A stretch of 64,000 nucleotides of DNA from Eubacteriales bacterium (GCA_030537135.1 JAUNOP010000002.1:10507-74506), one strand, 5' to 3'. Positions 13,608-29,163 are shown, numbered from the stretch's first letter. The notes: generated by a model not told the origin, from the sequence alone. Program-made: numbers and translations.

Positions 13608-13651
13608 TTATGCGGCTTAATGGGTCCTATTTAATTACAGCTGTCTACAGC

Positions 13652-13671: not shown

Positions 13672-13823
13672 TTTTTTTATAAAATTCACAAAAAAGGATT
13701 TGTATTTTTAATTTTCCGTGATAAAATGAGATAAAATGATAAAGGCATCAGGAAAAGGCATAATTAAGAAAAACTTGGAATATAGAAATAAAGAAAACTG
13801 AAGGGGTAATTATAAGAAGATGT

Positions 13824-14162: not shown

Positions 14163-14220
14163 ACTGATATTTCCTCCATCATACCCAAAAGAAGATTGTT
14201 TGGCAAGGAAAAACGCCGGA

Positions 14221-14284
14221 AATACCTAAACGACCAAAATAATACCTAAACAACATCCCACAGCAGAAAAAAGTATGTTATAAT
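14221..14284 (+). promoter_or_regulatory. extended -10 promoter (TGTTATAAT) preceded by two phased AATACCTAAAC repeats; likely promoter of the envelope operon
   Basis: AATACCTAAAC lies at 14221-14231 and 14241-14251, exactly 20 bp apart. TGTTATAAT lies at 14276-14284. There is no good -35, consistent with activator dependence. Confidence 0.45.
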
Positions 14285-14416
14285 TTGATTATAAAATGGA
14301 AAGTGGGGTTGACGTTTATAATCAGCACAAGACAGAGCAAGCATTTGCCTTGCCTGCCTTGTGTTGGTTTTTGGGGCATACAAAAATATACGGAAAAAGG
14401 GTGCGCCTGGAAAGGG

Positions 14417-15214
14417 ATGAAAGATATTATGAAAGAAAAACGGATTATCTATTATTCCAGAACATACCGGAGAATCAAGGTCAACAAGATAAAATACATA
14501 CTCTATATCTGCCTTTTGATTTTGCCGGCGCTTCTGTTTTTGTGGTTTCATCTGGATGATCTGACCAGATGGATGTGCGAAGTGTCTGTACAGGTTTTAA
14601 AAAAATACTGTCCGGAGGTAAGAGCCGGGATTCGGACCGAGCGCTATGCACTGTTTGGAAATTTAAGCTACTTATCTGCCAGGACGGTGTATCCGGGCTT
14701 TCGTACAAGCGTACTGAATGCCGTGGCGTCATTTTTTGCGATTGCTGTGATTGTGAATCTTCCCTGGAAGGGACGGCCGGTTGCGATTTATCTGCTTTTA
14801 AATACGGGAATCCATCTCATAAACAGTTTGTGGTTTGTATTTGGCGAGCGGTACTTTCCCTATTCCCTTACGACCTATTCAGAGCTGTACATGCTGCAGG
14901 AAATCGGTATCTGGATTGTGTTTCTGGTGATGACCGGGCTGGTGACAGGAATGATTGGCGATCGGGGTTTTATATATAAATTCCTGGCAGTGGCGGCGGT
15001 TATGGCATACTCCATTCTTTTTGGGGTTTTGCGCTATATGGTATTTATGTATTTTATGTATCGTTATTCGATTATTTATATGGCGTTGTGCTACTTCACC
15101 TTTGGCCCCATGTTTGATTTTTTGTATCTTGTAATGATTTATGCGATATTTGTAAACCGGATGATTAAGATCTATGATTCTGGAAAAGGCAGGGAGGCAT
15201 GGAGATGGTCGTAA
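14417..15214 (+). CDS. multi-pass integral membrane protein of unknown function (first gene of the envelope operon)
   Basis: About 6 hydrophobic segments are visible (YILYICLLILPALLFLWF, ASFFAIAVIVNL, VAIYLLLNTGIHLI, IGIWIVFLVMTGLV, FLAVAAVMAYSILFGVL, FDFLYLVMIYAIF). The track ORF start at 14285 overlaps the promoter -10, so the start is probably the ATG at 14417 or 14429. The 3' end overlaps the GT2 gene. Confidence 0.6.
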   Translation: MKDIMKEKRIIYYSRTYRRIKVNKIKYILYICLLILPALLFLWFHLDDLTRWMCEVSVQVLKKYCPEVRAGIRTERYALFGNLSYLSARTVYPGFRTSVLNAVASFFAIAVIVNLPWKGRPVAIYLLLNTGIHLINSLWFVFGERYFPYSLTTYSELYMLQEIGIWIVFLVMTGLVTGMIGDRGFIYKFLAVAAVMAYSILFGVLRYMVFMYFMYRYSIIYMALCYFTFGPMFDFLYLVMIYAIFVNRMIKIYDSGKGREAWRWS

Positions 15215-16470
15215 AAATAATGAAGGGGTATATGATTTTTGTCATCATTGTAATGCTGCTGTATACGGCCCGACATTTTTTCTTTACCATTGTCCGGCTG
15301 GTTGGAAGACAGCGGCTTTACTATAATGACGTTGTGACAAGCAGAATGAAAAGTATTTCTGTACTGATTCCCATGCACAATGAGGAACAGGTATTAAATA
15401 ATGTGCTGAATTCTTTGCTGGAGTGTGATTATGACAGAGACAGGCTGGAAATTATTCCCATCAATGATAATTCCACAGACCAGACAAAGGCCATGCTGGA
15501 TGAATATCACCGGAAGTATGAATTTATCCGTCCTCTGCACAGGGACTGCCCGGACAGGGGCAAGCCCGTGGGATTAAATGACGCCATGCAGAGGGCAAGA
15601 GGGGAGATTATCATTGTTTTTGACGCGGATTATCGTCCTGCCAAAAACATGCTCAAGCAGATTGCCCTGGCCTTTGAGGATCCCCAGGTGGGAGCGGTTA
15701 TGGGAAGGGTAATTCCTTATAATACCAACAAAAATATACTTACCCGGCTGATTAATCTGGAGCGTTCCGGAGGGTATCAGATAGACCAGCAGGCACGGTA
15801 TAATCTGCGGGCAATCCCTCAGTACGGGGGAACCGTGGGCGGCTTTCGCAAGGATTTCCTTCTGGAAAGCGGCGGCTTTAACCCCAAGGTGCTGGCAGAG
15901 GATACGGAGCTTACCTATCGGCTTTTTACCAATGGCTGGAAGGTGGTTTATGCCAACTCCGCAGAGTGCTATGAGGAGTCGCCGGAGAGCTGGAATGTGC
16001 GAGGAAGGCAGATACGAAGATGGTCCAGGGGGCATAATCAGGTGCTGTTTCGATATCTGATCCCCACTATACTTACGCCCCATCTGACGTTGTTTCAGAA
16101 AATTGACGGCCTGTTTCTTTTGTTCATTTATTCTGTTCCGCTGATTTTGCTTCTTGGCTGGGCGAATTCCCTAGGGTTGTTTTTCCTGGGAGAAATGAAT
16201 ATCTTCAAAGGCTGGTGGGTGATTTTGTTCCTTGGAGTTTACAATTCTCTGGGAAATTTCGCACCATTTTTTGAGATAGGTACCTCGCTGGTAGTTGACG
16301 GGCTTTTGGGAGAGGCCATGCTTCTGCCGCTTATAATGTTTAACTTTTTCTTTTATATGTGGAACATTTCTCTTGGCTTTTTGGACGCAGTGGTGGATAT
16401 CATCACAGGACGCGGTGTGAAGTGGGATAAAACCGTCCGTTTTGCCAAGAAGAAAGGAGCGCCGCAATGA
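15205..16470 (+). CDS. processive family-2 glycosyltransferase (PgaC/IcaA/cellulose-synthase-like polymer synthase) with N- and C-terminal TM segments
   Basis: It carries the D, DxD, TED and QxxRW set: PINDNSTD, IIVFDADY, QYGGTVGGFRK, LAEDTELTYR, RGRQIRRWSRGH. One TM helix precedes and about 4 follow the catalytic domain. The ATG at 15205 is 7 nt after AGGGAGG (an alternative ATG is at 15199). Confidence 0.85.
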   Translation: MVVKIMKGYMIFVIIVMLLYTARHFFFTIVRLVGRQRLYYNDVVTSRMKSISVLIPMHNEEQVLNNVLNSLLECDYDRDRLEIIPINDNSTDQTKAMLDEYHRKYEFIRPLHRDCPDRGKPVGLNDAMQRARGEIIIVFDADYRPAKNMLKQIALAFEDPQVGAVMGRVIPYNTNKNILTRLINLERSGGYQIDQQARYNLRAIPQYGGTVGGFRKDFLLESGGFNPKVLAEDTELTYRLFTNGWKVVYANSAECYEESPESWNVRGRQIRRWSRGHNQVLFRYLIPTILTPHLTLFQKIDGLFLLFIYSVPLILLLGWANSLGLFFLGEMNIFKGWWVILFLGVYNSLGNFAPFFEIGTSLVVDGLLGEAMLLPLIMFNFFFYMWNISLGFLDAVVDIITGRGVKWDKTVRFAKKKGAPQ

Positions 16471-18188
16471 GTTCATTGGTTTTGTTATTTGTCTTCTTGC
16501 TCCTGGCGCCTCTTCTCATTGCAACGCTGTACTTTAAGACAAGAAAGGGAAATATTCTGGGAATCCGCCAGGATTATGTAAGAGATGTGCGTTACTTTGG
16601 CCACAGCTTTGCCGGGATGGTGGAAAAAGCGCTGCCAAATATGAAAAACGGAGAGCTTCAGTTATCCAGAAAGGAACAGGTGCTGGAGATTGGAAGCGAG
16701 CAGATATTTGAGGAGCCGGAGATTGAAAAGCTGGTCATTGTGAGAAACAGGGAGTTTTGTCCAAAAGGGGAAAAGCTTCATTTTCAGAAGGAGATTTACT
16801 GCGAAAAAGATGCGCACCTTATTGGAGAGGAGCTTTATCTTCGAGCTGCGTTCAGTAGGAAGCGGATACTTCTTGGCAATGGAACAGAGGTGGTGCGCTG
16901 GGTGGATGCAGACGGTGCGGTGGCAGTTTATGATCACTGCGACCTGGGAAGGAGTGTTTCCAGCGGTGAGCAGCTGGTGATTGGATTTGACAATATCTTT
17001 CATAGCCTTTTTGCCCCACAGATAAGGCTGGGTGTGCGGCCGGAGGATCCGGACGAATTTATGAAGGGACGTGATCCGAAAATTTTCCGCCTTCCAGTCA
17101 TAACGGATTCAGAGTTCAATGCCCATTATATCAGTGATGATATGATTTCCGAGGAGGGGCTTGTACCCTATACCATCATCACCAGGTTGGGTCTTAAGAT
17201 TGTAGACGGAATCATTCTCCAGGGAGATATCCACAGTGACCACTTTGTCCGTGTGATGGAAGGCGGGACGGTTCTTGGAAATATTTTCGCGGAGAAGGAT
17301 ATTCTTCTGGAGAAAAATACGACGGTTCTTGGAAATGTATTTACGCAGGGGGATATCTTTTTTGAGGAAGGCGCCTGCGTAGGGCAGCCTGGAAAAATCA
17401 GTTCTGTGATTGCCAGAGGAAATATTCAGTTTACCGGTAAGAATTATGTGTATGGTTATATCTCGTCAGAAGCAGGAGGCAGGATACTTCCGCAGATGGA
17501 TATTCAGATGGATGATGATGGAAATGAAATCCCGCCAATTTACTGCTTTCCGGGAAAGATGAAATATCAGGAGGAAATTCGCTTCCGGGATTTGATAGAA
17601 TATGGGAATGTGGACGCCCAGGGCTTCCGGCTGGATATGAATATCAAGCGGGCAGAGATTCCTTTCGGCGCCAGGGAAATACCGGAAAGCCAGTTCTTTG
17701 GCTGCGGCGGCATGGAGGAAATCTCGCTTCCTGTTACGCTTACCTCTGTAGAGGCTTATGCCTTTGCAGATTGTTTAAAAATGCGGTGTAAGGAGGATTT
17801 GGGAAGAATACCCCTGCGCTTTGTGGGAATTTCTGCCTTTGAAAATTGCGAAAATCTGGAATGCTCTGGTTTGCCAGATACATTGGAAAGCATTGAGGGC
17901 GCCGCCTTTGCCGGCTGCAGTTCTTTGAAAACGCTTGTCTTTTCGGATGGGGCTGCCCTGAAAAAAGTGGGGGATCACGCATTCCGAAGCTGTACGGGGC
18001 TTACAAAGGTTTCCCTGCCGGATAGGACGGAATATGTGGGCGTCAGCGCCTTTTTGGGTTGTACCTCATTAAAAGAAATCTCTCTGCCGGAAACAGTGAA
18101 GAAGGAGCCGGGGGTAAAGGAGCTTGCCAAGAATTGCCCTGGAATCCATATTACCTTCCGTGAAGTTCCGGCTGAAGAGGAAAGCTAG
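16467..18188 (+). CDS. membrane-anchored protein with bactofilin-like beta-helix repeats and C-terminal BspA-type leucine-rich repeats
   Basis: N-terminal TM (SLVLLFVFLLLAPLLIATLYF). Middle repeats GDIHSDHFVRVMEGGTVLGNIFAEKDILLEKNTTVLGNVFTQGDIFFEEGACVG. C-terminal LRRs (AFADC..., ISAFENCENL, IEGAAFAGCSSLKTL, VGDHAFRSCTGLTKVSLP, VSAFLGCTSLKEISLP). ATGA overlap with the GT2 stop. Confidence 0.7.
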   Translation: MSSLVLLFVFLLLAPLLIATLYFKTRKGNILGIRQDYVRDVRYFGHSFAGMVEKALPNMKNGELQLSRKEQVLEIGSEQIFEEPEIEKLVIVRNREFCPKGEKLHFQKEIYCEKDAHLIGEELYLRAAFSRKRILLGNGTEVVRWVDADGAVAVYDHCDLGRSVSSGEQLVIGFDNIFHSLFAPQIRLGVRPEDPDEFMKGRDPKIFRLPVITDSEFNAHYISDDMISEEGLVPYTIITRLGLKIVDGIILQGDIHSDHFVRVMEGGTVLGNIFAEKDILLEKNTTVLGNVFTQGDIFFEEGACVGQPGKISSVIARGNIQFTGKNYVYGYISSEAGGRILPQMDIQMDDDGNEIPPIYCFPGKMKYQEEIRFRDLIEYGNVDAQGFRLDMNIKRAEIPFGAREIPESQFFGCGGMEEISLPVTLTSVEAYAFADCLKMRCKEDLGRIPLRFVGISAFENCENLECSGLPDTLESIEGAAFAGCSSLKTLVFSDGAALKKVGDHAFRSCTGLTKVSLPDRTEYVGVSAFLGCTSLKEISLPETVKKEPGVKELAKNCPGIHITFREVPAEEES

Positions 18189-18201
18189 AAGGAGGGAAGA
18201 A

Positions 18202-19323
18202 ATGAAGGAAAAAAAATTAGGCTTGGCGCTTCTTTCTTTGGCAGTGATGGCGGTATTGGCAATCGGCTGTGTGTGCCTGCAGAACTTTATGCATGAGCTG
18301 ACAAATGCAAAAGAAGCAGAGGTGTTCTGGCCGGAAATGCGGGATCAGTATAATCAGTATGGTTTGCCGGATCATACGGAACTTTCCAAGGAAATCATTG
18401 TGCAAAACGATACAGAGGTAATTTATACAGATCGTATTTTTACACTTGGACAGCTAACCAAGAGCGATGCGCAGTATGCGATAAAGGCTGCTGACGCACT
18501 TCTGAAAATCGAGCCGCAGATCGAAAAGCTGTATATTATGCCCATCCCGGAAAGGGCGGTATTTGAAGAAGGCTATGAAACAGAACGGGAAGCATATCAG
18601 ACGCTTATCGAAAATCTTCAAAATTCGGTACACGAAGGGGAAGTAATTCTGGATCCACTGGAGGAGCTTCTTGCTCACCAGGAAGAATACATTTACTTTC
18701 GGACACATAACTCCTGGACTATGCGGGGGGCCTTTTACGGAATGCAGGTTATGCGAAAAGCTCTTGGCCTTGAAGAAGAAGATCTGAATGGGTACAGAAC
18801 CTATATGTTTGGAGATTTTACTGGTAGTTTGTTGACGCATGCGACTGCAGAATATAAGGATACAGAGTATGAGGAAGCCATAGATGAAATGGAAGGGGAT
18901 CCATTTTATATCTATATTAAAGGACATAATCCGAACAGAGAGGAACTGACATTCCGAAATGCACAGGGCGAGCTGAAAACGATGAAGAGAGGGACTATTC
19001 TGATGAACAGTAATGGGCCGTCTTCTGTAGTTGGAGGGAGCTATTATCACAGTGTTGTATCAGGAAACGGAAAAGGAAGTATTATTTTAATTGCAGATAG
19101 CCTGGGAAAGCTGCTGGTTTCTTACCTTTCCCAATTGTATGAGACGGTATATGTGGTAAAGGCGGATGAAGATGCTTTGTTTGCAGAAGAGGTAAATAAG
19201 GTGGTATCGGAATACGGGGTGCATGAGGTCTTATGGGCACAAAGAGCTTCTGAGATAGGAGATGCTTCTTATATGAAGGCGTGGAATACTCTTCTTAGAA
19301 AGGAAGGTATGGCAAATGACTGA
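18202..19323 (+). CDS. DHHW/AlgJ-like family protein with the signature motif degenerated (RTHNSWT)
   Basis: N-terminal TM anchor (LGLALLSLAVMAVLAIGCV). Size (about 373 aa) and the block YIYFRTHNSWTMRGAFYG align with the YYRTDHHWT(x)GAY block of DHHW proteins as I recall it. ATG at 18202 follows GAAGGAGGG. Confidence 0.5.
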   Translation: MKEKKLGLALLSLAVMAVLAIGCVCLQNFMHELTNAKEAEVFWPEMRDQYNQYGLPDHTELSKEIIVQNDTEVIYTDRIFTLGQLTKSDAQYAIKAADALLKIEPQIEKLYIMPIPERAVFEEGYETEREAYQTLIENLQNSVHEGEVILDPLEELLAHQEEYIYFRTHNSWTMRGAFYGMQVMRKALGLEEEDLNGYRTYMFGDFTGSLLTHATAEYKDTEYEEAIDEMEGDPFYIYIKGHNPNREELTFRNAQGELKTMKRGTILMNSNGPSSVVGGSYYHSVVSGNGKGSIILIADSLGKLLVSYLSQLYETVYVVKADEDALFAEEVNKVVSEYGVHEVLWAQRASEIGDASYMKAWNTLLRKEGMAND

Positions 19324-19933
19324 ATGGATTCTTCGATGGATATCCCTTTTTGAGACAAAAACCAGGATTGCCGGGAAGTTTACCCTGGAGGAAACAACAT
19401 GGGAGCTGGTATTTTTGGTATTTGGAATCCTCCTTGTTTTTGCCGGTATTAAGCTTTTTCGCCTCTTAAGTTCTTTTTTGATGTTTTCGGCAACTGCCAT
19501 TGTACTGTGTACCTTTATGAATGGAAGAGCGAATTGGGGGGCGATTGTGACTGCCTTTACCATTATTGGCTGTCTGTTTGCCTATATGGTCTTTAACTGG
19601 AAGGTGGCGGATGCCATTGTGATAAGCTCCCTCACAGCGGCCGCCATAGCCTGGAAGGTGTATCCAGTATGGTGGGCGGCGCTGCTTGTTGGGGCTGCAG
19701 TGGGTATTTTTGTTGGGAACTTTCCGCTTATTGGGATCACCGCCTCCACAGCAGTAGCAGGTGTGACGATTCTTATGGAAGGAGCGTTAAGGGATGGCAG
19801 TCCGTTTATTCCTGTTTTGGCAGTATTCGCCGGATTTGGAGTTCAGTTTTTCTTGATTGGAAGGAAACAGAAGCTTTTTGCAAGGACTATGCCGGCAAAG
19901 CTGAAGCATAGGCTGGAACGCAGAAGGAGGTGA
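19316..19933 (+). CDS. polytopic membrane protein of unknown function
   Basis: 205 aa with 5-6 hydrophobic helices and a basic tail (KLKHRLERRRR). 8-nt overlap with the preceding gene. Confidence 0.6.
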   Translation: MTEWILRWISLFETKTRIAGKFTLEETTWELVFLVFGILLVFAGIKLFRLLSSFLMFSATAIVLCTFMNGRANWGAIVTAFTIIGCLFAYMVFNWKVADAIVISSLTAAAIAWKVYPVWWAALLVGAAVGIFVGNFPLIGITASTAVAGVTILMEGALRDGSPFIPVLAVFAGFGVQFFLIGRKQKLFARTMPAKLKHRLERRRR

Positions 19934-19937
19934 GGCT

Positions 19938-20618
19938 ATGCGGACGGTTTTTCGAAAAGAAATCAAATATTTGATTCCAAGAGGTACGGCTCTTTCTCTG
20001 GAAAGAAGGCTGAGAGAAGTCATGGAGAGGGATACGCATGGAGACGATGGAAATTATTTCATCCGCTCTCAGTACTACGATTCTGTGTATGACCGGGATC
20101 TGGCGGATAACCTGGACGGCTTGTATGAAAAGAGAAAAATTCGCCTGCGGATTTACGATTTGGATACGTCCATGGTGAAACTGGAATATAAGTGCAAAAA
20201 CGGTCTGGACGGAGTGAAATATTCCATGGATATCAGCAGGGAGGAGGCTTTGCAGATGGAGCAGGGGGATATCTCTTTCCTCCTGGATTATGACAATGAG
20301 CTGGCCATGCATCTCTGGGCCAGAATGACGGAAGGTTATTATCGGCCGAAGATCATTGTGGATTATCACAGACTGGCCTTTGCGTATCCGGCGGGAGACG
20401 TACGGATTACCTTTGACCGGGATATCCGGGGGTCTGTTTGCCCCTACGGGCTTTTTGAGGAAATCAGCACCGATGGGATAGGCGGACCGGAGGAGGTTTT
20501 GATGGAGGTCAAATACACAGATTTTTTGCCGGATACCCTGCAGTGGATTTTAAAGGATGCAGATTCACTGGCTGCAAGCAATAGTAAATATTCCAGAACA
20601 AGAATGCTCTGCCGGTAA
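19938..20618 (+). CDS. VTC-domain (polyphosphate polymerase / triphosphate-tunnel) protein, soluble
   Basis: 226 aa. FRKEIKYLI..., YFIRSQYYDS, KRKIRLRIY, VKLEYKCK and LMEVKY form the alternating basic/acidic beta-strand pattern of CYTH/VTC tunnels. Called by recollection. Confidence 0.7.
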   Translation: MRTVFRKEIKYLIPRGTALSLERRLREVMERDTHGDDGNYFIRSQYYDSVYDRDLADNLDGLYEKRKIRLRIYDLDTSMVKLEYKCKNGLDGVKYSMDISREEALQMEQGDISFLLDYDNELAMHLWARMTEGYYRPKIIVDYHRLAFAYPAGDVRITFDRDIRGSVCPYGLFEEISTDGIGGPEEVLMEVKYTDFLPDTLQWILKDADSLAASNSKYSRTRMLCR

Positions 20619-20708
20619 CAAAGGAATCGACAGGAAGGAGAAAAGTTTGGAAGTAAACTTCCAAATTTACCATTATTGACGCAGCATGTGCGTCATGAAG
20701 GAGGAAAA

Positions 20709-21389
20709 ATGAGAGAATTTATTGTAGAAAATTTAACGAACACAGAAGCGCTTAGTGTGACAGTGATTGTCATGAACAATGTACTCGCTTTGGTTGCTGC
20801 TTTTTTTATTATGTTTACGTACAAAATATCCTTTACAGGAAGCGCTTACAGCCGGAAATTTAATGTTTCCCTTGGCTCTATTACCATTATTACGACTATG
20901 ATTATGAGTGTTATCAGCAACAATGTAGCATTGTCTCTTGGTATGGTGGGCGCTCTTTCCATCATCCGTTTCCGTACGGCTGTGAAGGATGTACGGGATG
21001 CTGTCTATATTTTCTGGGCCATTGCGGCAGGAATTGGCTGCGGTGTGTCTCAGTATGCTCTGATAGCCATTGGCTCTGCGTTTTTGCTTCTGTTTCTTAT
21101 TCTTACCAGGAGAGGCTTTACTTCTGAGAAGAAGCTGATGATTGTTCAGGGCGATGTTGCGGCGCTGCATAAGATTGAGGCGGCAGTAGAAAATTTCTTT
21201 GACAGAAAGGTTCAGGTGACCATGCGCAATGTGACAAAAACAAGCTGTGAGCTGGTGTATTCCATTGGAGAAGGGCTTCTGTCCAAGGCTGCCAAGGAAA
21301 AACAGATGGATATTTCCGAAAAGCTGATTAAAATTGATGGTGTAAAGAGAGTAAATATCGTAGACCAGAAAGATGAACTGTCACAATAA
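20709..21389 (+). CDS. DUF4956-family membrane protein (4 TM + C-terminal soluble domain)
   Basis: ATG at 20709 follows GAAGGAGG. It has TM helices and the conserved-looking GALSIIRFRTAVKDVRDAVYIFWAIAAGIGCG, then a soluble tail of about 90 aa. It sits beside VTC and CotH genes, as DUF4956 genes usually do. Confidence 0.6.
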   Translation: MREFIVENLTNTEALSVTVIVMNNVLALVAAFFIMFTYKISFTGSAYSRKFNVSLGSITIITTMIMSVISNNVALSLGMVGALSIIRFRTAVKDVRDAVYIFWAIAAGIGCGVSQYALIAIGSAFLLLFLILTRRGFTSEKKLMIVQGDVAALHKIEAAVENFFDRKVQVTMRNVTKTSCELVYSIGEGLLSKAAKEKQMDISEKLIKIDGVKRVNIVDQKDELSQ

Positions 21390-21416
21390 AACAGGAACCA
21401 TGCAAGGGGTGAGGCT

Positions 21417-22853
21417 ATGAAACGTGCAAAGAAGCTGGCGGCGTGTGTGATGCTGCTGCTGGTTCTGCTTGCGGCAGTGGTGGCGGGAAATTATGTGGTG
21501 CGCTTGGAAGAAACCGTGGAAGCAGAAAAGCGGGTCTCTATTTCCGAGAAGGAGATGGAAAAATGGAAGGCGCCTTCGGAGAAATTTTTGGAGTATTACG
21601 GGCTTGGTGTATTTCGCACCAATCTTCCGGTGGTCTATATGAACACAAATGGACAGCAGGTTTTAAAGGAAAACAAAATCTGGGGAAATATTGCCCTTCT
21701 GGATGCAAATGGCGAGGAACAGTCGATTATATCTGTTCCAAACGCGTTGTATCGGGCAACGATCAAATACCGGGGGGCATCCTCGTATAGCGGTTTTGAT
21801 AAGAAACAGTATCGGATAAAATTTTATAAGAATGATTCTGACGGGGCAAAGAACGTATCACTGGCCGGTATGGGAGCGAACAGCGAATGGGTGTTAAACG
21901 GGCCGTATCTGGACAAGACGCTGATGCGGAATAAACTGGTTTATGACCTGGCAAGGGAATTGAATGGCTGGGCGCCGGATTCCAGATTCGTGGAGCTTTT
22001 TGTGGATGGAGAGTATCAGGGCGTTTATCTTGCTGTGGAGCCGGTCACAAACGGGGAAAGCAGGCTGCGGCTTTCGGAATTTGGCCTGTTATCAGGAGAG
22101 ACGGCATATATTGTGGGACGTGACAGGCTGGAGACAGGAACCTCGGAGATTGAAACTAGCGGAAAGACTAAAGGGTATACGAACAATACTTTGTATTTGA
22201 GGTATCCTTCAGAAAGTAACGTGACGGAAAGACAGTGGGAATACATTGTCAAGGATATTTCGGATTTTGAGGAAGTCCTTTATGGGGAGGATTTTACAGA
22301 TTCCAGGATGGGATATTTGGCTTATATTGATGTGGATAACTGGGTAGACTATTTTATTATCAATGAATTTGCCATGAACTATGATGCAGGAAATTTGTCA
22401 ACCTATGTCTATAAGGAGTTGGCTGGGAAGCTGCAGCTTGCCGTGTGGGATTTCAATAATAGTTTTGATAATTATCATTGGCTCGGAGTGGATACTGCAG
22501 GTTTTTATACCGTTGAGAATTCCTGGCTGGACAGAATATGTGAAGACAGAGATTTTATTGACCGGGTTATAGAACGATACCGTGTGTTGCGGGAAGGCAT
22601 TTTGTCAGAGGAGCATATACAGGAACTGCTGGATTCCTATGAAGCGGAGCTGGGAGACGCGATAGAGCGAAACTTTAAGATTTGGGAATATTCCTTTGAG
22701 GAAAACCTCTTGGTAGGAAAAAAAGCAGACGGAGGCGAAAGAGATATCACAAGCTATGAGCAGGCAATGGAGCAGTTAACCTCCACCATCCATAAACGTT
22801 TGTTATGGCTGGATGAACATATCGAAGATCTTTACCAATATTGTGTAGAGTGA
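21417..22853 (+). CDS. CotH-family atypical protein kinase with N-terminal signal anchor
   Basis: 478 aa. Signal anchor LAACVMLLLVLLAAVVAG. CotH blocks YRIKFYK, NSEWVLNGPYLDKTLMRNKLVYDLAREL, FVELFVDGEYQGVYLAVEPV, DYFIINEFAMNYDAGNLSTY and AVWDFNNSFD. Confidence 0.8.
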   Translation: MKRAKKLAACVMLLLVLLAAVVAGNYVVRLEETVEAEKRVSISEKEMEKWKAPSEKFLEYYGLGVFRTNLPVVYMNTNGQQVLKENKIWGNIALLDANGEEQSIISVPNALYRATIKYRGASSYSGFDKKQYRIKFYKNDSDGAKNVSLAGMGANSEWVLNGPYLDKTLMRNKLVYDLARELNGWAPDSRFVELFVDGEYQGVYLAVEPVTNGESRLRLSEFGLLSGETAYIVGRDRLETGTSEIETSGKTKGYTNNTLYLRYPSESNVTERQWEYIVKDISDFEEVLYGEDFTDSRMGYLAYIDVDNWVDYFIINEFAMNYDAGNLSTYVYKELAGKLQLAVWDFNNSFDNYHWLGVDTAGFYTVENSWLDRICEDRDFIDRVIERYRVLREGILSEEHIQELLDSYEAELGDAIERNFKIWEYSFEENLLVGKKADGGERDITSYEQAMEQLTSTIHKRLLWLDEHIEDLYQYCVE

Positions 22854-22871
22854 AAGGACTGGAAGAAGAAA

Positions 22872-23972
22872 ATGAAAAAAGTAATGGCTGTGTTTGGGAC
22901 AAGGCCGGAGGCTATTAAGATGTGTCCTCTTGTTCTGGAGCTGAAAAAAAGCGATCAGTTAGAGACTCTTGTGTGCGTCAGCGGACAGCATAGGGAGATG
23001 CTTCAGCAGGTGCTGGATATTTTCGGTGTGGTGCCGGATTATGATTTGGCAATTATGAAGCAGGGGCAGGATTTGACGGATGTGACTACCGCAAGCCTTG
23101 TTGGAATGAGAGAGGTGCTGAAAAAGGAAGAGCCGGACGTGGTGTTGGTTCATGGTGATACCTCGACGGCCTTTGCGGCTTCCCTTGCGGCCTTTTATCA
23201 GCAGATTCCTGTGGGGCATGTGGAGGCGGGGCTTCGTACCTATAATCTTTGGTCCCCGTATCCGGAAGAGTTTAACCGTCAGGGTATCGGTCTGACTGCG
23301 ACGTATCATTTTGCCCCCACGGAGACGGCCAGGAAAGCGCTTTTAAAAGAGGGAAAAAATCCGGAGCGAATCTATGTGACCGGAAATACAGGAATCGATG
23401 CTCTGTTTCATACCATCCGGGAGGATTTCCATCATCCGGAGATTGACTGGGCGAAGGGAAGCCGGTTAATCGTTCTTACAGCTCACAGAAGAGAGAATTT
23501 AGGCGATCCTATGCGGGAAATGTTTCGGGCAATTCGCCGAATCATTGATGAATTCCAGGATGTGAAGGTTCTTTATCCTATTCATATGAATCCGAAGGTG
23601 CGGGCGATTGCATCGGAGGTCTTTGAGGACTGCGAGCGGATTCGGATCATTGAGCCGCTGGATGTGGTGTCGTTCCATAATCTGATGAAAGCCAGCTATC
23701 TCATCATGTCGGACAGCGGCGGAATTCAAGAGGAAGCGCCTGCATTAGGAAAGCCGGTTCTGGTGATGCGGGATACCACCGAGAGGCCGGAGGGTGTGGA
23801 AGCGGGTACGCTGAAACTGACCGGCACCGGAGAGGAAGCAATCTATCAGGAATGCAAAAGGCTCTTGACAGACCCGGAGGTTTACCGTCAGATGAGCGAG
23901 GCCACAAATCCGTATGGAGACGGAAAGGCCAGCCAGAGAATCCGAAAAATTTTGGAGGAGACAGATGCGTAA
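22872..23972 (+). CDS. wecB: UDP-N-acetylglucosamine 2-epimerase (non-hydrolysing)
   Basis: 366 aa. MAVFGTRPEAIKMCPL..., HVEAGLRT, TAHRREN and SDSGGIQEEAP are typical WecB/MnaA blocks. Confidence 0.9.
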   Translation: MKKVMAVFGTRPEAIKMCPLVLELKKSDQLETLVCVSGQHREMLQQVLDIFGVVPDYDLAIMKQGQDLTDVTTASLVGMREVLKKEEPDVVLVHGDTSTAFAASLAAFYQQIPVGHVEAGLRTYNLWSPYPEEFNRQGIGLTATYHFAPTETARKALLKEGKNPERIYVTGNTGIDALFHTIREDFHHPEIDWAKGSRLIVLTAHRRENLGDPMREMFRAIRRIIDEFQDVKVLYPIHMNPKVRAIASEVFEDCERIRIIEPLDVVSFHNLMKASYLIMSDSGGIQEEAPALGKPVLVMRDTTERPEGVEAGTLKLTGTGEEAIYQECKRLLTDPEVYRQMSEATNPYGDGKASQRIRKILEETDA

Positions 23973-25137
23973 GCGCTTTTTGGGACGCAGAAGTTTTACT
24001 TGGATAGGAGTGTTGGCGCTGCTTGCGGTATTGGGATACCTGGGCGCGGATATGGTATACCGAAAAATGAATGAGAGAATATATCAGCCAAGGCTTGCCT
24101 GGGCAGAGGCTCTGATGGAGCGGGAGAAGGAATGGATTTTTGCTAATCAGGGAGAGGATGGGGAAATTTACATGAACGGAGAAGAGGCCGGGAATGTAAA
24201 TCCCTATTTTTCCTGTCAGGCGGCGCTGGGACTTTTACAAGGAACAAAAGAACGGCCGGCTGCGGAAAGGGAGCTTTCTGCAGCCGGCCGTTATTTGAAT
24301 TGGCATACAAAGGTGCTGCTGGATTCTGATGGAGCAGTGGGGATTTATGAGAAGAAGGGGGATTCCTTTGTGCGGACAGACAAAGGGGATTCCGTGGATG
24401 CGTATCTGGGGACGTATCTGGAGCTGCTTGGAAAGTATCTGCTGACAGCTGGAAGCGTGGAGGGGCTGGACTCCTGGGAGGAGGGCATTTTGGCGGCTGT
24501 TGGTGCGCTGGAGTCGCTTTTGGAGGATGGTCTGACCAGGGTTTCGGCGGAGAATGATACGAAGTATTTGATGGATAATCTGGAGGTTTGGAGGGGGCTT
24601 GCGGCTTTGGAGGAGGGGCTGGATGCAATATCGACTACCACCGGGGAGGCTTTGGCAGTGTGCGGGCGCATAGAGAAGCTGCGGAGGATTCTGGAAGAGC
24701 GGATAACAGAGGCTTTTTGGGTGGAAAGCGTGGGAAGATGGCGCGTTATGGAGGGGGATGAGCGTTTTTCTGAGGGGTCATTTTATTTGGATGAGTTTTA
24801 TCCGGACGGAGTGGCACAGATTTATCCGCTGATTTATGGATTCCCGGTGGAGGACTGGAAGGCGCAGAAGGAGCTTTATCGTGATTTTACGGAGGCATTT
24901 CGGTGGGAAGTGATTGAAGAAAACACATCGGAGTTTGTCTGGACGATGGTGGGAATGGGAGCTGCGAAAGCAGGGGATGTAGAGAGGCTGGAAGACTTTT
25001 TGGAAAACTATGAGAAGGCATTTGCCTCTAAGAGAGACTACCCGCTATACACCGGCGAGGCCGGATGGGTTTGCAGAGAGTGCGAGTGGTATTGTAGATA
25101 TTGTTTGAAGAAGATAGAAGGGCATTTGTTATTTTGA
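23965..25137 (+). CDS. membrane-anchored all-helical protein of unknown function (possible six-hairpin glycosidase-like fold)
   Basis: The ATG at 23965 overlaps the wecB stop (ATGCGTAA). N-terminal anchor FTWIGVLALLAVLGYLG. The rest is helix-rich with aromatic/acidic repeats (DAYLGTYLELLGKY, YLMDNLEVWRGLAAL, FYPDGVAQIYPLIYG). The fold guess is weak. Confidence 0.55.
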   Translation: MRKRFLGRRSFTWIGVLALLAVLGYLGADMVYRKMNERIYQPRLAWAEALMEREKEWIFANQGEDGEIYMNGEEAGNVNPYFSCQAALGLLQGTKERPAAERELSAAGRYLNWHTKVLLDSDGAVGIYEKKGDSFVRTDKGDSVDAYLGTYLELLGKYLLTAGSVEGLDSWEEGILAAVGALESLLEDGLTRVSAENDTKYLMDNLEVWRGLAALEEGLDAISTTTGEALAVCGRIEKLRRILEERITEAFWVESVGRWRVMEGDERFSEGSFYLDEFYPDGVAQIYPLIYGFPVEDWKAQKELYRDFTEAFRWEVIEENTSEFVWTMVGMGAAKAGDVERLEDFLENYEKAFASKRDYPLYTGEAGWVCRECEWYCRYCLKKIEGHLLF

Positions 25138-25229
25138 GGCTTTATGAGAAAAAGGGGATCTTGCGCGGTCATGAAGTGAGTGGAAAGATTTTTTGAAGGC
25201 AGAATAAACGTCAGGTGAGGAATAATGTC

Positions 25230-28043
25230 ATGGAAAAGAAGGTAAGCCAGAAACAATATAAAAGACATGTTCAGACTGTCCTGCTTTTGCTGATTGCGGC
25301 TGCTGTTGCGCTGTTGGTGTTTTTCTGGGCAGTCCAGCAGGCAGTCGAGGCGAATGTAAAACAGAGTGTCTGCAGGAATGTGGAGAACCAGAACAAATAT
25401 TTTCAGATGACTCTGGATATCCAATACAGCTATCTGGAGGCAGCGGCAGGAAAGGTTGGATTCTCCAAACAGCTTTTTTCGGAGGATAATATGGATCTGA
25501 TTCGCTCTATCACAGAGTGTACAGAACTCGATAGAGTGGCGATTATTGACAGCAGCGGTGAGTCGCATTATGACAACGGCGAGGTCAAGTCAGTAAAAGA
25601 GAGAAGATATTTTGCCGAGGGGATGGCAGGAAGCCGGACAATCAGCGATCCGCTGGAGAGCAAGGTATCTGGACAGACCCGGGTAATCCTCGGCGTACCT
25701 ATCTGGAAGGACGGGAAGACCGGAGGGGAAGTCATCGGCATTCTGGGAGGTTCTTATGATGTGTCTACGCTGAGCCAGCTCCTTTTTGGGGATATTTACG
25801 GCGGCAAGGGGAATCCCTTTCTGGCAGCAAAGGATGGCAAAATCATTGCCTACGGCGAGGAAAGCATGGAAAGCCTGAAAGATAAGGATAACCTGTTTGA
25901 TTTTTATAGCGAGATGTATGGCGACACCCGTGCAATCGTCCAGATGCGCAGAGACTTTGCAGCGGGGAAGTCAGGCTTTTTGCAGATAAAGAAAAGGACA
26001 TCTATACGCAATGTGGCTTATGAGCCGTTTGGTTACAATGGCTGGATGATTTGTTATGGAGTGTCTTCCGAGGATGCAGAGAAGGACTATCGCTTTATCA
26101 GCCACTATGAAATGATATTGCTGATAGTGATGGTAGGTCTTGTGTTGTGTATGATATTCTCCTTTGTAAATGTCAACGGCGTCCGGCAGAAGGAACTGAT
26201 AAAGCTTGCCAGCACAGATGCTCTGACAGAACTGCACAGCAAAAAAAGCACTGAGGATCAGATTCAGAAATGGCTGAGTCCGGAGAACGAAGCCTTGAAA
26301 GGAATCCAGGCATTTTTGATCATGGACGTCGATTATTTTAAGGAGGTCAATGATAATTACGGACACACAGTTGGCGATGAGGTGCTGCGCCAGATAGGCG
26401 GATGCATCAAAAAAGTTTTTCGCAGTACAGATATCATGGGAAGAATCGGCGGCGATGAGTTTGCTGTTTTCATTAAAAATGTAGGGTCTGTTGAGAATGT
26501 GGAACACAAGGCGGTGGAGCTGGCTGAGCGAATCCGCCAGATGACTGTCCCAGAGCTGGCTGATCAGAGAATTACCTGCAGCATTGGGGTGGCCTGCTAT
26601 CCAAAACATGGGAGAACCTATCTGGAGCTGTTTAAGCATGCAGATATGGCGCTGTATGAGACAAAGGATCGTGGGCGCAACGGTTATACCATATATTGTG
26701 CAGACGGCAGTGTGCAGAATGAGGACAGCTTTGTGCAGCGCGCGTACACGGAAATCAATCCGCTTACTGGTTTGTACTTCAATAAGGCGTTCTTCAGGAA
26801 GGCGAATGAATATATTCAGAGGGAGGAAAACAGCGCTTATTTGATGGCGGCCATTGATATTGAACATTTCCGGCTGTTTAATACTCTTTACGGCAGGAAA
26901 GAGGGCGATCGCTTTTTGGTGTATATTGCTGAATGTCTGCTGCAGGTGCAGAGGGAAGGAAAAGGGATAGCCGGATATCTGGGAGGCGATAACTTTTGCG
27001 TTATTCTCTCGTCTCATCACAGGATTTTGCCGAGAATTCAGAGGGAAATTACAGAGAAGGTGGAGGAATGGAGCCGGTCCGTGGCATTTTTGCCGGCATT
27101 TGGTATTTATTATATTATGGACAAAACCATGCCCGCAGTAGCTATGTATGACTGCGCTACCATGGCGCTGTCCCGTGTTTATGGCAATTATTCGCAGAGA
27201 AGCTGCGTATTCAGCAACCAGATGATTCGGCAGACAGAAGAGGAAATCCTTCTGATCAATGAGATCAAGGAAGGAATCGAGCGAGAGGAATTTGTCTTTT
27301 ACGTGCAGCCCCAGTGCCGTATTTCTTCTGACAAGCTGAAAATTGTAGGAGGCGAGTGTCTGGTGCGCTGGAACCATCCGAAACGGGGTATAATCTCACC
27401 GGGAGAATTTGTTCCAATTCTGGAACAAAGCGGATTTTTGGCGGAGCTTGATCGTTACACATGGCAAAAGGCGTGTCAGTGGCTAAGCAGCTGGATTGGC
27501 AGGGGAAAAAGCATAGTTCCGATTTCAATCAATGTGTCGCGGATTGACATTCTTTCTATGGATGTACTCGGATATTTGAAAGGGCTGATTGAAGAATATA
27601 AGGTGCCGCCGCAGCTTTTGCAGCTGGAGATTACGGAAAGTGTATATGCAGATGAAAATAAAGCAATCCTGGAAACACTGGAGCTGTTGCAGCAGGCGGG
27701 ATTTATGGTAATAATGGATGACTTTGGAAGCGGTTATTCATCTTTAAATATGCTCAAGAGCGTGACAGTGGATGCGTTGAAGATCGATATGAAATTCCTT
27801 CAGTTTGATAAGAATCAGGAAGAGCGTGGACTAAATATTCTGGGCTCCGTAATCCGTATGTCACAGGGCATCGGACTCCCTACGATTATGGAGGGCGTTG
27901 AGAACCGCGCTCAGCAGGAATTTCTGGAATCTATGGGCTGCTGCTATGTCCAGGGCTTTTACTACTTCCGCCCAATGCCTGTGCAGGATTTTGAAAAGCT
28001 GATTTCGGACGAGAATGTACTGGATCAGGGCGGCTTTCAGTGA
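25230..28043 (+). CDS. membrane sensor: Cache-like periplasmic domain, GGDEF (with I-site), degenerate GGDEF, EAL
   Basis: Two TM segments flank a domain of about 260 aa. The first GGDEF is RSTDIMGRIGGDEFAV, with RxxD five residues before GGDEF. The second is YLGGDNFCV. The EAL domain carries GGECLVRW, QLEITES, DDFGSGYSSL, LKIDMKF and EGVE. The ATG at 25230 follows GGTGAGG. Confidence 0.9.
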   Translation: MEKKVSQKQYKRHVQTVLLLLIAAAVALLVFFWAVQQAVEANVKQSVCRNVENQNKYFQMTLDIQYSYLEAAAGKVGFSKQLFSEDNMDLIRSITECTELDRVAIIDSSGESHYDNGEVKSVKERRYFAEGMAGSRTISDPLESKVSGQTRVILGVPIWKDGKTGGEVIGILGGSYDVSTLSQLLFGDIYGGKGNPFLAAKDGKIIAYGEESMESLKDKDNLFDFYSEMYGDTRAIVQMRRDFAAGKSGFLQIKKRTSIRNVAYEPFGYNGWMICYGVSSEDAEKDYRFISHYEMILLIVMVGLVLCMIFSFVNVNGVRQKELIKLASTDALTELHSKKSTEDQIQKWLSPENEALKGIQAFLIMDVDYFKEVNDNYGHTVGDEVLRQIGGCIKKVFRSTDIMGRIGGDEFAVFIKNVGSVENVEHKAVELAERIRQMTVPELADQRITCSIGVACYPKHGRTYLELFKHADMALYETKDRGRNGYTIYCADGSVQNEDSFVQRAYTEINPLTGLYFNKAFFRKANEYIQREENSAYLMAAIDIEHFRLFNTLYGRKEGDRFLVYIAECLLQVQREGKGIAGYLGGDNFCVILSSHHRILPRIQREITEKVEEWSRSVAFLPAFGIYYIMDKTMPAVAMYDCATMALSRVYGNYSQRSCVFSNQMIRQTEEEILLINEIKEGIEREEFVFYVQPQCRISSDKLKIVGGECLVRWNHPKRGIISPGEFVPILEQSGFLAELDRYTWQKACQWLSSWIGRGKSIVPISINVSRIDILSMDVLGYLKGLIEEYKVPPQLLQLEITESVYADENKAILETLELLQQAGFMVIMDDFGSGYSSLNMLKSVTVDALKIDMKFLQFDKNQEERGLNILGSVIRMSQGIGLPTIMEGVENRAQQEFLESMGCCYVQGFYYFRPMPVQDFEKLISDENVLDQGGFQ

Positions 28044-28139
28044 GAAGCTTTTTTGCTCTCAAGGCCGTGTACAAAGCCTTGAGCTCCTGTCTGTAATATA
28101 ATGAGGCTGTATGATTGAGAAAAGCTAAGGAGGGATAGT

Positions 28140-29099: not shown

Positions 29100-29107
29100 C
29101 GCAGGCG

Positions 29108-29155: not shown

Positions 29156-29163
29156 TGTGAGCC

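Follow-up and report, generated by a model that had tools for sequence, protein, structure and literature searches.

The window analysed here, a 64,000-nt stretch of DNA from a Eubacteriales bacterium of the gut Clostridia (GCA_030537135.1 JAUNOP010000002.1:10507-74506), carries on its + strand a tight operon of 10-11 genes (14417-25137) that is centred on a processive GT2 synthase and includes consecutive genes for a VTC-domain protein, a DUF4956 membrane protein and a CotH-family atypical kinase (Table 1). Neighbouring genes overlap by up to 16 nt or lie up to 90 nt apart, and ribosome-binding sites of the GGAGG type are present. The operon is understood as serving a sugar polymer of the biofilm matrix, of the synthase-dependent exopolysaccharide type. 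The three ORFs named in the original prediction are all present on the + strand, and profile search assigns each of them to the proposed family, above the Pfam gathering threshold in every case.

Table 1. Genes of the exopolysaccharide operon and the adjoining c-di-GMP gene (positions in the window)
Feature	Position	Strand	Matches and remarks
memA, 265-aa multi-pass membrane protein, operon's first gene	14417..15214	+	five hydrophobic segments
Processive membrane GT2 synthase, operon's polymer-making enzyme	15199..16470	+	PF00535 (E=2e-29), PF13641, PF13632
573-aa protein with N-terminal anchor, bactofilin-like stretch and BspA-type LRRs	16467..18188	+	PF13306 E=7.7e-29; weak Bactofilin match
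DHHW-family protein, anchored, bulk predicted outside	18202..19323	+	PF14286 E=9.4e-17
memB, 205 aa, roughly 6-TM	19316..19933	+	six hydrophobic segments
VTC-domain protein, 226 aa	19938..20618	+	PF09359
DUF4956 membrane protein, 226 aa	20709..21389	+	PF16316; start set from homologues
CotH-family atypical kinase, 478 aa	21417..22853	+	PF08757
WecB, non-hydrolysing UDP-GlcNAc 2-epimerase, supplies UDP-ManNAc	22872..23972	+	TIGR00236 E=3.2e-153, above cut-off; PF02350
Anchored protein, tight operon's last gene (ORF from 23914)	23965..25137	+	N-terminal TM
dCache-GGDEF-EAL membrane protein	25215..28043	+	PF00990, PF00563, PF02743

The family match of the synthase bears out the expected GT2 neighbour and, with it, the link of the triad to a GT2 polymer operon. 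Transmembrane segments lie at both ends of the GT2 protein, and its nearest solved relatives are the GT2 of 6yv7 and BcsA. PgaC_IcaA (TIGR03937) is the best NCBIfam match but, at 121.6 bits, falls far under the cut-off of 422.3, and identification as the PNAG synthase PgaC/IcaA is therefore not supported. The LRR protein begins with a transmembrane segment (residues 1-19) followed by KTRKG, its bulk being predicted cytoplasmic; the DHHW protein, whose family is SGNH/AlgX-like, starts at the ATG at 18202 (ORF translation) and has its N-terminal segment after MKEKK. Among operons of the window type, memA is kept at the head, the LRR protein is retained and the last anchored protein recurs in many loci, with Pfam and NCBIfam returning no family for memA, and Pfam, NCBIfam and PDB none for the anchored protein. 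The stop codon of memB lies 4 nt ahead of the VTC start. Although memB matches nothing in Pfam or NCBIfam, most window-type loci have a homologue in the equivalent slot (tblastn); in a BcsA-like operon type the slot is filled by a different small membrane protein, c13 (hhalign probability 36% against memB), and distant triads lack memB. We consider memB a possible fourth component of the cassette. The dCache-GGDEF-EAL gene, beginning 77 nt past the operon end, likely provides the c-di-GMP input for the locus.

The VTC protein matches PF09359 over profile positions 1-229 of 235 (E=2.2e-27, 96.6 bits vs cut-off 23). Its AlphaFold2 (AF2) model (pLDDT 83.6) finds its best PDB fold match in yeast Vtc4 (3g3r, E=3.6e-12, TMq 0.68-0.73), which outranks other tunnel enzymes, and the top 12 Foldseek PDB matches are all Vtc4 or Vtc3 chains (TMq 0.60-0.73). 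Profile comparison with Vtc4 agrees (hhalign probability 95.6%; 93-96% across runs, where it served as positive control). All nine triphosphate/Mn ligands of Vtc4 are in place: K10, R69, R71, K85, Y143, R145, E190, S216 and K217 correspond, in this order, to Vtc4 K200, R264, R266, K281, Y359, R361, E426, S457 and K458, and each of them is unchanged in 66-67 members of a set of 67 homologues. Given that K458 is replaced by Ile or Leu in inactive Vtc2/3 (residue roles from 10.1101/2023.01.27.525886), the window protein keeps the very Lys that sets active Vtc4 apart. As foreseen, the protein is soluble, with no transmembrane segment (maximal 19-mer hydrophobicity 0.53). From sequence and model it is thus predicted to be an active cytoplasmic tunnel enzyme with the complete polyP-polymerase catalytic set.

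The DUF4956 gene (PF16316, E=3.3e-13, 50.2 bits vs cut-off 30.6) stood up to scrutiny, though not with its first proposed start: because nearly all listed homologues have 226 aa and begin at the corresponding Met, the ATG at 20709, preceded by a GGAGG ribosome-binding site, is the most likely start rather than the TTG at 20676. Instead of the four transmembrane helices first proposed, the AF2 model has five (17-41, 49-69, 73-90, 95-112, 116-133), followed by the expected soluble C-terminal domain, a beta-alpha-beta-beta-alpha-beta unit of ACT-like fold at residues 141-220. The distribution of K+R over the loops (1/3/0/4/0/4) gives an N-out, C-in topology in which the loops with 3-4 K+R, hence the invariant basic loop and the ACT-like domain, are predicted to face the cytoplasm. 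The conservation claimed for the IIRFRTAVKDxRD loop is borne out, R87, F88, R89, T90, K93, D94 and D97 being invariant in 35 sequences of 38-100% identity and the RFRT-KD-D residues likewise in 10 diverse family members including Proteobacteria; the whole family motif, LSLGMVGALSI-RFRT-KD-D, is present and invariant. AF2 confidence is lowest exactly at the RFRT motif (pLDDT <50, residues 85-92), and no basic residues lie inside the membrane core.

Several comparisons suggest that DUF4956 is MgtC-like, a distant relative of that family. The match to PF02308 (E=0.0086, 16.9 bits) is under the threshold of 31.4, as is that to NCBIfam PRK09977 (15.9 bits vs cut-off 214); several DUF4956 homologues carry a precomputed MgtC annotation; the top fold match is the MgtC C-terminal domain 2lqj, at only E=2.8e-3 and TMt 0.56, followed by ACT domains; and hhalign gives 80% against an unverified Salmonella MgtC sequence. 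The original prediction, by contrast, had drawn on yeast VTC to cast DUF4956 as a conduit, and here homology fails: against the channel subunit Vtc1 the hhalign probability is 0.3%, the 50 fold matches listed for DUF4956 contain no VTC chain, DUF4956, memB, c13 and memA all score ≤3.5% against Vtc1, and Pfam and NCBIfam find neither SPX nor DUF202 in any operon protein. A conduit role is conceivable by analogy only. Each of the best 150 DUF4956 representatives is a stand-alone protein of only 104-282 aa, too short for a fusion with VTC; apparent VTC-DUF4956 fusions were rejected as junction chimeras. For the Bacteroidetes, named in the original prediction beside the Firmicutes, the literature yielded only a DUF4956 gene of B. 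thetaiotaomicron.

The CotH protein is a clear family member (PF08757, E=9.9e-63, 213 bits vs cut-off 23.8) and is recognisably related to B. cereus CotH 5jd9 (E=1.8e-10 with the single sequence, 6.4e-14 with the profile). Its D323 and D345 align with high posterior probability to B. cereus D224 and D247, which with an offset of 4 would be D228 and D251 of B. subtilis CotH, the residues whose mutation inactivates the kinase (data cited in PMC7821199). Both Asp are invariant in 67/67 CotH homologues. ATP is, to our knowledge, the only phosphodonor that CotH uses. A hydrophobic segment (residues 7-25, Kyte-Doolittle 2.58) follows MKRAKK, and 65 of the 67 homologues are alike in having one; the N terminus is thus predicted to be inside, as anchor or signal, and the catalytic domain outside the cytoplasm, in line with the extracytoplasmic placement first proposed. 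In more distant triads, the CotH proteins bear LTD, Fn3-associated, CHB_HEX_C or beta-helix modules of the kind typical of extracellular proteins.

Since the spore coat is the only characterised setting of CotH, one may ask if, in this spore-former, the operon builds a spore-surface glycan with CotH as the coat kinase, as in Bacillus. The window does hold SpoIVB, Spo0A, SpoIIM, SpoIID and a SleB-like hydrolase, and the operon sits between spoIVB and spo0A. However, the N-terminal anchor, apparently missing from the solved B. cereus chain, and the setting in a polysaccharide operon indicate a location at the cell surface, the flanking gene encodes a c-di-GMP enzyme, no sporulation-specific promoter is callable, and the triad occurs in non-sporulating Streptococcus as well as in Bifidobacterium, Enterococcus and Halioglobus, none of them known as spore-formers. 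We judge a sporulation role very improbable.

That the three genes belong together is evident from their genomic linkage, which is far beyond chance, as the proposed co-occurrence check reveals. The gene immediately preceding DUF4956 is VTC in 74/75 species-representative genome loci, and CotH adjoins in 62/69 genome loci (63 with a divergent Halioglobus CotH; ~90%). Reciprocally, VTC and DUF4956 adjoin in 68 of 69 VTC-anchored metagenome loci, a further adjacency count gives 47/48, and all five distant DUF4956 representatives have VTC next to them, four with a Pfam CotH adjoining in shuffled gene order and the fifth with a divergent CotH-like beta-helix protein. An accidental meeting of three unrelated genes, refuted by these counts and by the rearranged order in distant lineages, is left with a practically negligible probability. 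CotH is missing from 7 loci where the pair lies next to a sigma-factor gene and from a SAR324 locus; the basic function of the pair would therefore not need CotH. That the triad forms one functional cassette, co-transcribed with the exopolysaccharide operon, is proposed tentatively and jointly with the mechanism set out below.

Contrary to the original prediction, the triad is not without precedent: descriptions that include mutant phenotypes date from 2020 and 2025, although the prediction was roughly right in that neither account offers a mechanism (PMC7112168, PMC12345266). Whitfield et al. (2020; PMC7112168 / 10.1101/768473) count the genes for CotH, a 'poly-phosphate polymerase' and DUF4956 among the accessories of pel operons in Gram-positive bacteria, as does the S. 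intermedius study; in bifidobacteria a DGC/PDE gene accompanies them. The S. intermedius homologues are SIR_1594 (CotH), SIR_1593 (polyP-polymerase-like) and SIR_1592 (DUF4956/MgtC-ACT) (mBio 2025, PMC12345266). According to the same work, deletion of the DUF4956 or CotH homologue changes the amount of Pel and lowers aggregation by >50%, the DUF4956 mutant making more Pel yet aggregating less and the CotH mutant making less Pel, whereas deletion of SIR_1593, unlike that of both partners, has no clear aggregation phenotype. Synteny of the triad outside pel loci is reported there as absent (PMC12345266). The present data show otherwise. A Pel-specific Pfam match is found in 0 of the 48 window ORFs scanned (the larger ORFs outside 1-5442), where the sole GT4/GT1 match is a starch-synthase-type gene at 34731-36203. 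Besides pel and the GT2/WecB operon of the window, the cassette is found in a BcsA-like GT2-PilZ/MBOAT/AlgX/GH5 operon, in a Bac_transf/GT2/GT1 cluster and in Butyrivibrio clusters. At least three glycan contexts other than Pel thus include the triad, and the restriction to Pel does not hold. Because the polymers that it travels with differ in chemistry, the triad probably has a generic role, for instance in adding charge or in cross-linking, rather than a sugar-specific one.

Taken together, we propose a mechanism in which VTC, in complex with DUF4956, would make polyP from NTP at the membrane. In the pair, bacteria would have a split counterpart of the eukaryotic VTC complex by analogy, without homology to the VTC channel. 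DUF4956, probably oligomeric, might pass or present the phosphate-rich product across the membrane under gating by its ACT-like domain, and CotH, lacking ATP supply outside the cell, could draw on this product to phosphorylate either the growing polymer or a protein of the surface or matrix, thereby altering charge and cohesion of the matrix. DUF4956, the only membrane-spanning member, would bridge a phosphate polymerase in the cytoplasm and a phosphotransferase outside it. The proposal as a whole seems to us to fall a little short of an even chance. A linear pathway from VTC through DUF4956 to CotH leads one to expect that a VTC mutant phenocopies the other two, and the silent SIR_1593 deletion argues against so simple an arrangement; the model of polyP export to an ecto-kinase from which this analysis started is plausible, though partly contradicted by that missing phenotype. 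Other observations weigh against the proposal as well: DUF4956 shows neither homology to Vtc1 nor basic residues inside the membrane core, its relative MgtC is no channel, its model is least confident at the RFRT motif, VTC fusions are missing among the best 150 representatives, the pair occurs in loci lacking CotH, and ATP is the sole donor known for CotH.

The mutant data also accommodate a regulatory reading. DUF4956 would then be an MgtC-like membrane regulator whose partner is another membrane protein (the synthase, the ATP synthase or a phosphate sensor) and whose ACT-like domain responds to a metabolite; VTC would make or bind cytoplasmic polyP as a phosphate/energy buffer or signal, nothing phosphate-rich would cross the membrane, and CotH would be an independent ecto-kinase on released ATP, the triad as such tuning polymer amount. 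The weak but recurrent likeness to MgtC, the regulatory look of more Pel in one mutant and less in the other, the slight effect of losing VTC, the suggestion in an S. intermedius preprint that polyP remains cytoplasmic and the pair beside a sigma-factor gene in loci without CotH all fit. What remains unexplained is why VTC and DUF4956 are almost never apart, why CotH stays attached through gene shuffling across phyla, and which phosphodonor would serve it where ATP is scarce, outside a Gram-positive cell; in addition, the MgtC score is below the Pfam threshold. We regard this reading as somewhat unlikely.

Alternatively, polyP itself could be the matrix component, exported by VTC and DUF4956 as a structural polyanion that cross-links polymer, cations or proteins, with CotH not using it as donor but anchoring or trimming it, or phosphorylating matrix proteins separately. 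Active-polymerase residues combined with an obligate membrane partner speak for this as they do for phosphotransfer, and so do the lower aggregation of the DUF4956 mutant despite higher Pel and a PhoD-like secreted phosphatase adjoining the Halioglobus triad. Pel carries partially deacetylated, cationic sugars and would offer a suitable counterpart; however, no deacetylase is recognisable in the window operon or in the BcsA-like operon, so that a polycation partner is not evident there. The VTC mutant again lacks a clear aggregation phenotype, and the catalytic Asp pair conserved throughout the CotH homologues implies real phosphotransfer chemistry. We consider polyP as matrix quite improbable.

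The phosphotransfer mechanism invites a generalization, in which VTC and DUF4956 constitute a polyP synthase-translocase, combining a yeast-type catalytic tunnel with an unrelated MgtC-like membrane protein, and CotH-family ecto-kinases use outside polyP, not ATP, on exopolysaccharides or surface proteins. In this broad form we deem it unlikely; if true, it would give a general answer to how substrates are phosphorylated outside the bacterial cytoplasm and a third bacterial route of polyP synthesis, besides PPK1 and PPK2.

Among known systems, MgtC/SapB, the virulence factor of Salmonella and M. tuberculosis, appears to share with DUF4956 a membrane domain of several helices ahead of an ACT-like domain in the cytoplasm, and there is a weak sequence match over a G-rich helix and basic loop; DUF4956 differs in scoring under the MgtC threshold and in its own RFRT-KD-D motif, and pairing with VTC is, as far as we know, no feature of MgtC. 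MgtC is described as a regulator with other membrane proteins as binding partners, and not as a channel (PMC12345266). The Bacillus spore-coat Ser/Thr kinase CotH (5JD9/5JDA) has the Pfam family and both catalytic Asp in common with the window protein, which is distinguished by ~110 extra N-terminal residues including the anchor (the kinase core aligns from ~residue 36 in B. cereus vs ~112 here) and by a polysaccharide operon in place of the spore coat. Fam20B, a xylose kinase, and POMK offer a functional analogy only, as atypical kinase-fold enzymes acting on glycans outside the cytosol; they differ in that their ATP is brought into the lumen of the Golgi or ER. POMK is described in the literature as a mannose kinase of the secretory pathway. 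The eukaryotic VTC complex (Vtc4/Vtc3 or Vtc2/Vtc1), which acts as polyP polymerase and translocase at the yeast vacuole, is similar in tunnel fold, in the nine ligands and in the obligate association of the enzyme with a membrane protein that displays a basic cluster at the cytoplasmic face; in yeast, synthesis is coupled to membrane transit via rings of basic residues at a cytoplasmic vestibule (10.1101/2023.01.27.525886). The window protein differs in having no SPX and a separate, soluble catalytic domain, its partner bears no relation to the three-helix domain of the Vtc1 type, and translocation is here only putative. Also close is the Gram-positive pel cassette, which unites these three families in one contiguous block joined to a synthase-dependent exopolysaccharide operon, with the dCache-GGDEF-EAL gene as counterpart of the bifidobacterial DGC/PDE gene. 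In the window, contiguity with pelDEA(DA)FG gives way to a GT2 synthase resembling PgaC or BcsA, accompanied by the WecB, DHHW and LRR proteins, and the gene order is VTC-DUF4956-CotH.

The VTC, DUF4956 and CotH genes are present on the plus strand as originally predicted, each scoring above its Pfam gathering threshold, and they lie inside a tightly packed plus-strand operon whose genes are spaced by -16 to +90 nt and, for the most part, have strong ribosome-binding sites. The DUF4956 start is placed at an internal ATG, as in nearly all listed homologues, and GGAGG precedes it. The operon's GT2 resembles PgaC only remotely (121.6 bits against the PgaC profile, cut-off 422) and has a membrane GT2 (6yv7) and BcsA as its nearest solved structures. 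Pel-specific families were not matched in a Pfam scan of 48 window ORFs, and the family-less anchored protein (407 aa) at the operon's end has no match in PDB, Pfam or NCBIfam. Scanning 13000-29500 for promoters and terminators gave counts not above shuffled controls; an inverted repeat flagged in the terminator scan lies mid-gene. No Rfam family, riboswitches included, reached threshold in the 1.2 kb leader. Proteins identical to this DUF4956 come from a MAG labelled 'Eubacteriales bacterium'; among genomes with a name, those of Blautia and Dorea are nearest.

Features of the window (memA and memB, multi-pass membrane proteins of no known family)
Feature	Position	Strand	Remarks
spoIVB	11298-12497		
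Leader	13209-14416		upstream of operon; no long ORF
memA	14417-15214	+	first operon gene
Processive GT2 synthase	15199-16470	+	
Anchored LRR/bactofilin-like protein	16467-18188	+	
DHHW protein	18202-19323	+	
memB	19316-19933	+	directly before VTC
VTC	19938-20618	+	PF09359, E=2.2e-27
DUF4956	start 20709	+	226 aa; PF16316, E=3.3e-13
CotH	21417-22853	+	PF08757, E=9.9e-63
WecB	22872-23972	+	after CotH
Anchored protein, family without name	23965-25137	+	after WecB
Inverted repeat	24251-24292		19 bp, 12 G-C pairs, 4-nt loop; in 407-aa anchored protein gene
dCache-GGDEF-EAL gene	25215-28043	+	77 nt past operon
spo0A	33742-34629		
6S RNA	56531-56707		Rfam, 66.5 bits
T-box leader	60492-60713		Rfam, 116 bits

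Two further features of the locus deserve record. The genes spoIVB and spo0A, which adjoin in many Firmicutes, are ~21 kb apart here. Between them lies what looks like an inserted block: besides the EPS operon and the GGDEF-EAL gene, it contains genes for an LprI-domain protein and a small RelA/SpoT-type synthetase, as well as two hydrogenase-maturation-like genes (for a radical-SAM/BATS protein and for HydF). Immediately 5' of VTC there is, in two operon types, always a small multi-pass protein of no family, memB in the window and c13 in the BcsA-like type (L036, 262-819); both have a short LLxxGxLLxFxGxKxYR-like stretch and may be related (hhalign probability 36% over 25 columns).

In a survey anchored on DUF4956 (one genome per GTDB species, 79 loci), the gene just upstream, in the same orientation, was VTC in 74/75 testable loci, and CotH lay directly downstream in 62/69, with a 63rd CotH locus, in Halioglobus, having a divergent CotH-beta-helix protein upstream instead. 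On metagenome contigs anchored on VTC, DUF4956 was adjacent at 68 of 69 loci and CotH came next at 47 of 48. Six distant DUF4956 representatives (~150 bits against the profile) were sampled, five of which could be read, the contig of P0500 being too short: VTC was adjacent in all five and Pfam CotH in four, in three different gene orders, and the fifth locus has a 938-aa beta-helix protein homologous (E=2e-33) to the CotH-beta-helix protein of Halioglobus. The co-occurrence of three families claimed at the outset is thus upheld, and because the adjacency outlives rearrangement across phyla, it constitutes strong evidence that the triad forms one pathway; chance adjacency is a practically negligible explanation. 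The part that does not vary is the pairing of VTC with DUF4956. The pair is found without CotH in one SAR324 locus and, after a sigma-factor gene, in seven Lachnospiraceae loci, the latter showing that it has a role independent of CotH. In these seven (L044, L045, L053, L054, L056, L069, L070), the pair directly follows a gene of the sigma-70 family and a conserved series of genes for Cys-tRNA ligase, a Ribonuclease_3-domain protein, SpoU methylase and GDSL lipase. At L037 and L051, two DUF4956-CotH copies flank GT2-PilZ, MBOAT and AlgX genes, and the VTC gene is single. Natural VTC fusions, considered as Rosetta-stone evidence, were rejected: the database proteins P0021, P0028, P0034 and P0048 (VTC with the C-terminal half of CotH, memB with VTC, VTC with a ParA/Mrp-like part, DHHW with VTC) are junction chimeras skipping parts of neighbouring genes and, since each skips intervening sequence, are read as assembly artefacts or operon deletion variants.

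The relation of the VTC protein to yeast Vtc4 was settled by structure prediction with Foldseek and by hhalign. The AlphaFold model (pLDDT 83.6) is most similar to the Vtc4 catalytic domain (3g3r, E=3.6e-12, TMq 0.68-0.73), other triphosphate-tunnel enzymes ranking lower, and a profile built from 67 VTC proteins of bacterial origin aligns with Vtc4 over 223 columns at 95.6% probability. PDB searches with the single sequence or an 18-sequence profile did not convincingly reach Vtc4 (best E=0.056, spurious YEATS matches). The residues contacting triphosphate/Mn in cryo-EM of Vtc4 are K200, R264, R266, K281, Y359, R361, E426, S457 and K458 (10.1101/2023.01.27.525886; Vtc4 sequence and numbering checked against PDB). 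All nine are found in the window VTC and are invariant in 66-67 of 67 homologues, with K458 carrying the greatest weight because the inactive Vtc2/3 have Ile or Leu at its position (10.1101/2023.01.27.525886). The complete ligand set, the Vtc4 fold and the absence of hydrophobic segments make it very likely, as judged from sequence and model, that VTC is a polyP polymerase both soluble and active.

The DUF4956 model (pLDDT 73, pTM 0.54) shows five helices, then a beta-alpha-beta-beta-alpha-beta domain. Loop K+R counts of 1/3/0/4/0/4 predict an N-out, C-in topology, in which both the C-terminal domain and the invariant RFRT-KD-RD loop would be cytoplasmic. A distant kinship with MgtC is indicated in several ways: in a fold search, the C-terminal domain matches that of MgtC best, with ACT domains next; the Pfam match to MgtC is sub-threshold, with several homologues annotated as MgtC; and hhalign gives 80% against an unverified Salmonella MgtC sequence. 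DUF4956 does not resemble Vtc1, the channel subunit in yeast (hhalign 0.3%), and the idea that the module's membrane proteins are Vtc1 homologues was likewise rejected, none being detectable by hhalign. Regulation in the style of MgtC, with polyP staying cytoplasmic, is accordingly a reading to be weighed, if a somewhat unlikely one; the S. intermedius preprint also considers that polyP may remain in the cytoplasm. DUF4956 proteins form a large family, with ~4,100 representative clusters at E <= 1e-10; all of the 150 best representatives are short and stand-alone, none exceeding 282 aa. With a partner family of this size, a catalytically complete Vtc4-type enzyme appears widespread and would add a third route to polyP in bacteria, where its synthesis is, to our knowledge, credited to PPK1 and PPK2.

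The window CotH matches the B. cereus CotH structure, and D323/D345 align with D224/D247 therein, the presumed B. subtilis counterparts being D228/D251; mutation of D228 or D251 inactivates the B. subtilis kinase (PMC7821199). Both catalytic Asp are invariant in 67/67 homologues. From the N-terminus (MKRAKK, then a hydrophobic segment of 19 residues, KD 2.58), CotH is predicted to be oriented N-in and to expose its domain on the outer side, and this predicted anchor, its hydrophobic feature common to 65/67 homologues, bears out the extracytoplasmic placement of CotH. The source is a spore-forming member of the Clostridia, and a role of the cassette at the spore surface is considered very unlikely. 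Based on the compartments, with the polymerase in the cytoplasm, a single partner spanning the membrane and a phosphotransferase that faces outward without obvious ATP supply, we tentatively favour a phosphate relay: VTC and DUF4956 would synthesise polyP and either present or export it, and CotH would then transfer phosphate from it to the polymer or to proteins of the surface. Against this relay stand the MgtC-like, not channel-like, ancestry of DUF4956 and the weak VTC-mutant phenotype: in S. intermedius, deletion of the DUF4956 and CotH genes alters the Pel level and cuts aggregation by more than half, whereas deletion of the VTC gene has little effect (PMC12345266). That polyP itself serves as the matrix polyanion seems improbable. 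The original prediction, with DUF4956 as polyP conduit, is thus supported in part: families, linkage and external CotH stand, but DUF4956 is MgtC-like without Vtc1 similarity and the triad had already been described. What powers extracytoplasmic phosphorylation in bacteria is a long-standing puzzle, made directly testable by a VTC enzyme that is strictly paired with a membrane protein and often accompanied by an outward-facing kinase, and the chemistry of the cassette may shape biofilm and aggregate properties in commensals and pathogens alike.

Operons built as in the window (memA-GT2-LRR-DHHW-memB-triad; WecB and the family-less anchored protein variable) occur at ~33 genome loci and at most metagenome loci, many of the latter from human gut. 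In a second type (~28 loci), the triad precedes MBOAT, an AlgX-like protein, a BcsA-like GT2-PilZ synthase and GH5; further contexts are a Butyrivibrio cluster with large LTD-CotH, a Bac_transf/GT2/GT1 cluster and a beta-helix/GT cluster. In Butyrivibrio (L055, L071, L072, L075), the triad with its 700-aa LTD/Fn3-associated CotH adjoins a lasso-peptide-like set of Asn-synthase-like, transglutaminase-like and HPr-kinase-like genes, together with a two-component system and a GT2. In the proteobacterial Halioglobus MAG (L079, 6447-12659), VTC-DUF4956 is preceded by the CotH-beta-helix protein, of 909 aa, and followed at once by a PhoD-like phosphatase, which hints at extracellular phosphate chemistry. 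Two window-type operons are on contigs binned to non-Firmicutes (L013, Sphaerochaetaceae MAG; L030, Chitinophagales MAG); their DUF4956 shows 60-81% identity to the window's, as high as Lachnospiraceae and Oscillospiraceae loci, and the distribution probably reflects mis-binning, or else recent transfer.

Lastly, the same three families are known as pel accessory genes (Whitfield et al. 2020, PMC7112168; S. intermedius study, preprint 2024, mBio 2025, PMC12345266), with CotH predicted there to be secreted, the VTC-like polymerase to be cytoplasmic and the third product to be an MgtC/ACT protein with 4 TM segments (PMC7112168, PMC12345266). Our literature search found no functional work on the triad beyond the pel papers; for the Bacteroidetes it brought up only a DUF4956 gene, in B. 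thetaiotaomicron. The earlier statement that no function was described holds for the mechanism but needs softening in view of the mutant phenotypes published for the pel-linked DUF4956 and CotH genes. Triad synteny outside pel loci has been reported as absent (PMC12345266), a restriction contradicted by the non-Pel loci found here. New from the current analysis are the full inventory of catalytic residues, the topology, the relation to MgtC, and the evidence for the pair as core and for shuffled gene order. Whereas the published Gram-positive cassette belongs to a pel operon, that of the window belongs to a GT2/WecB operon devoid of matches to Pel-specific families; the cassette is thus already known, and the window represents a new, non-Pel operon type.
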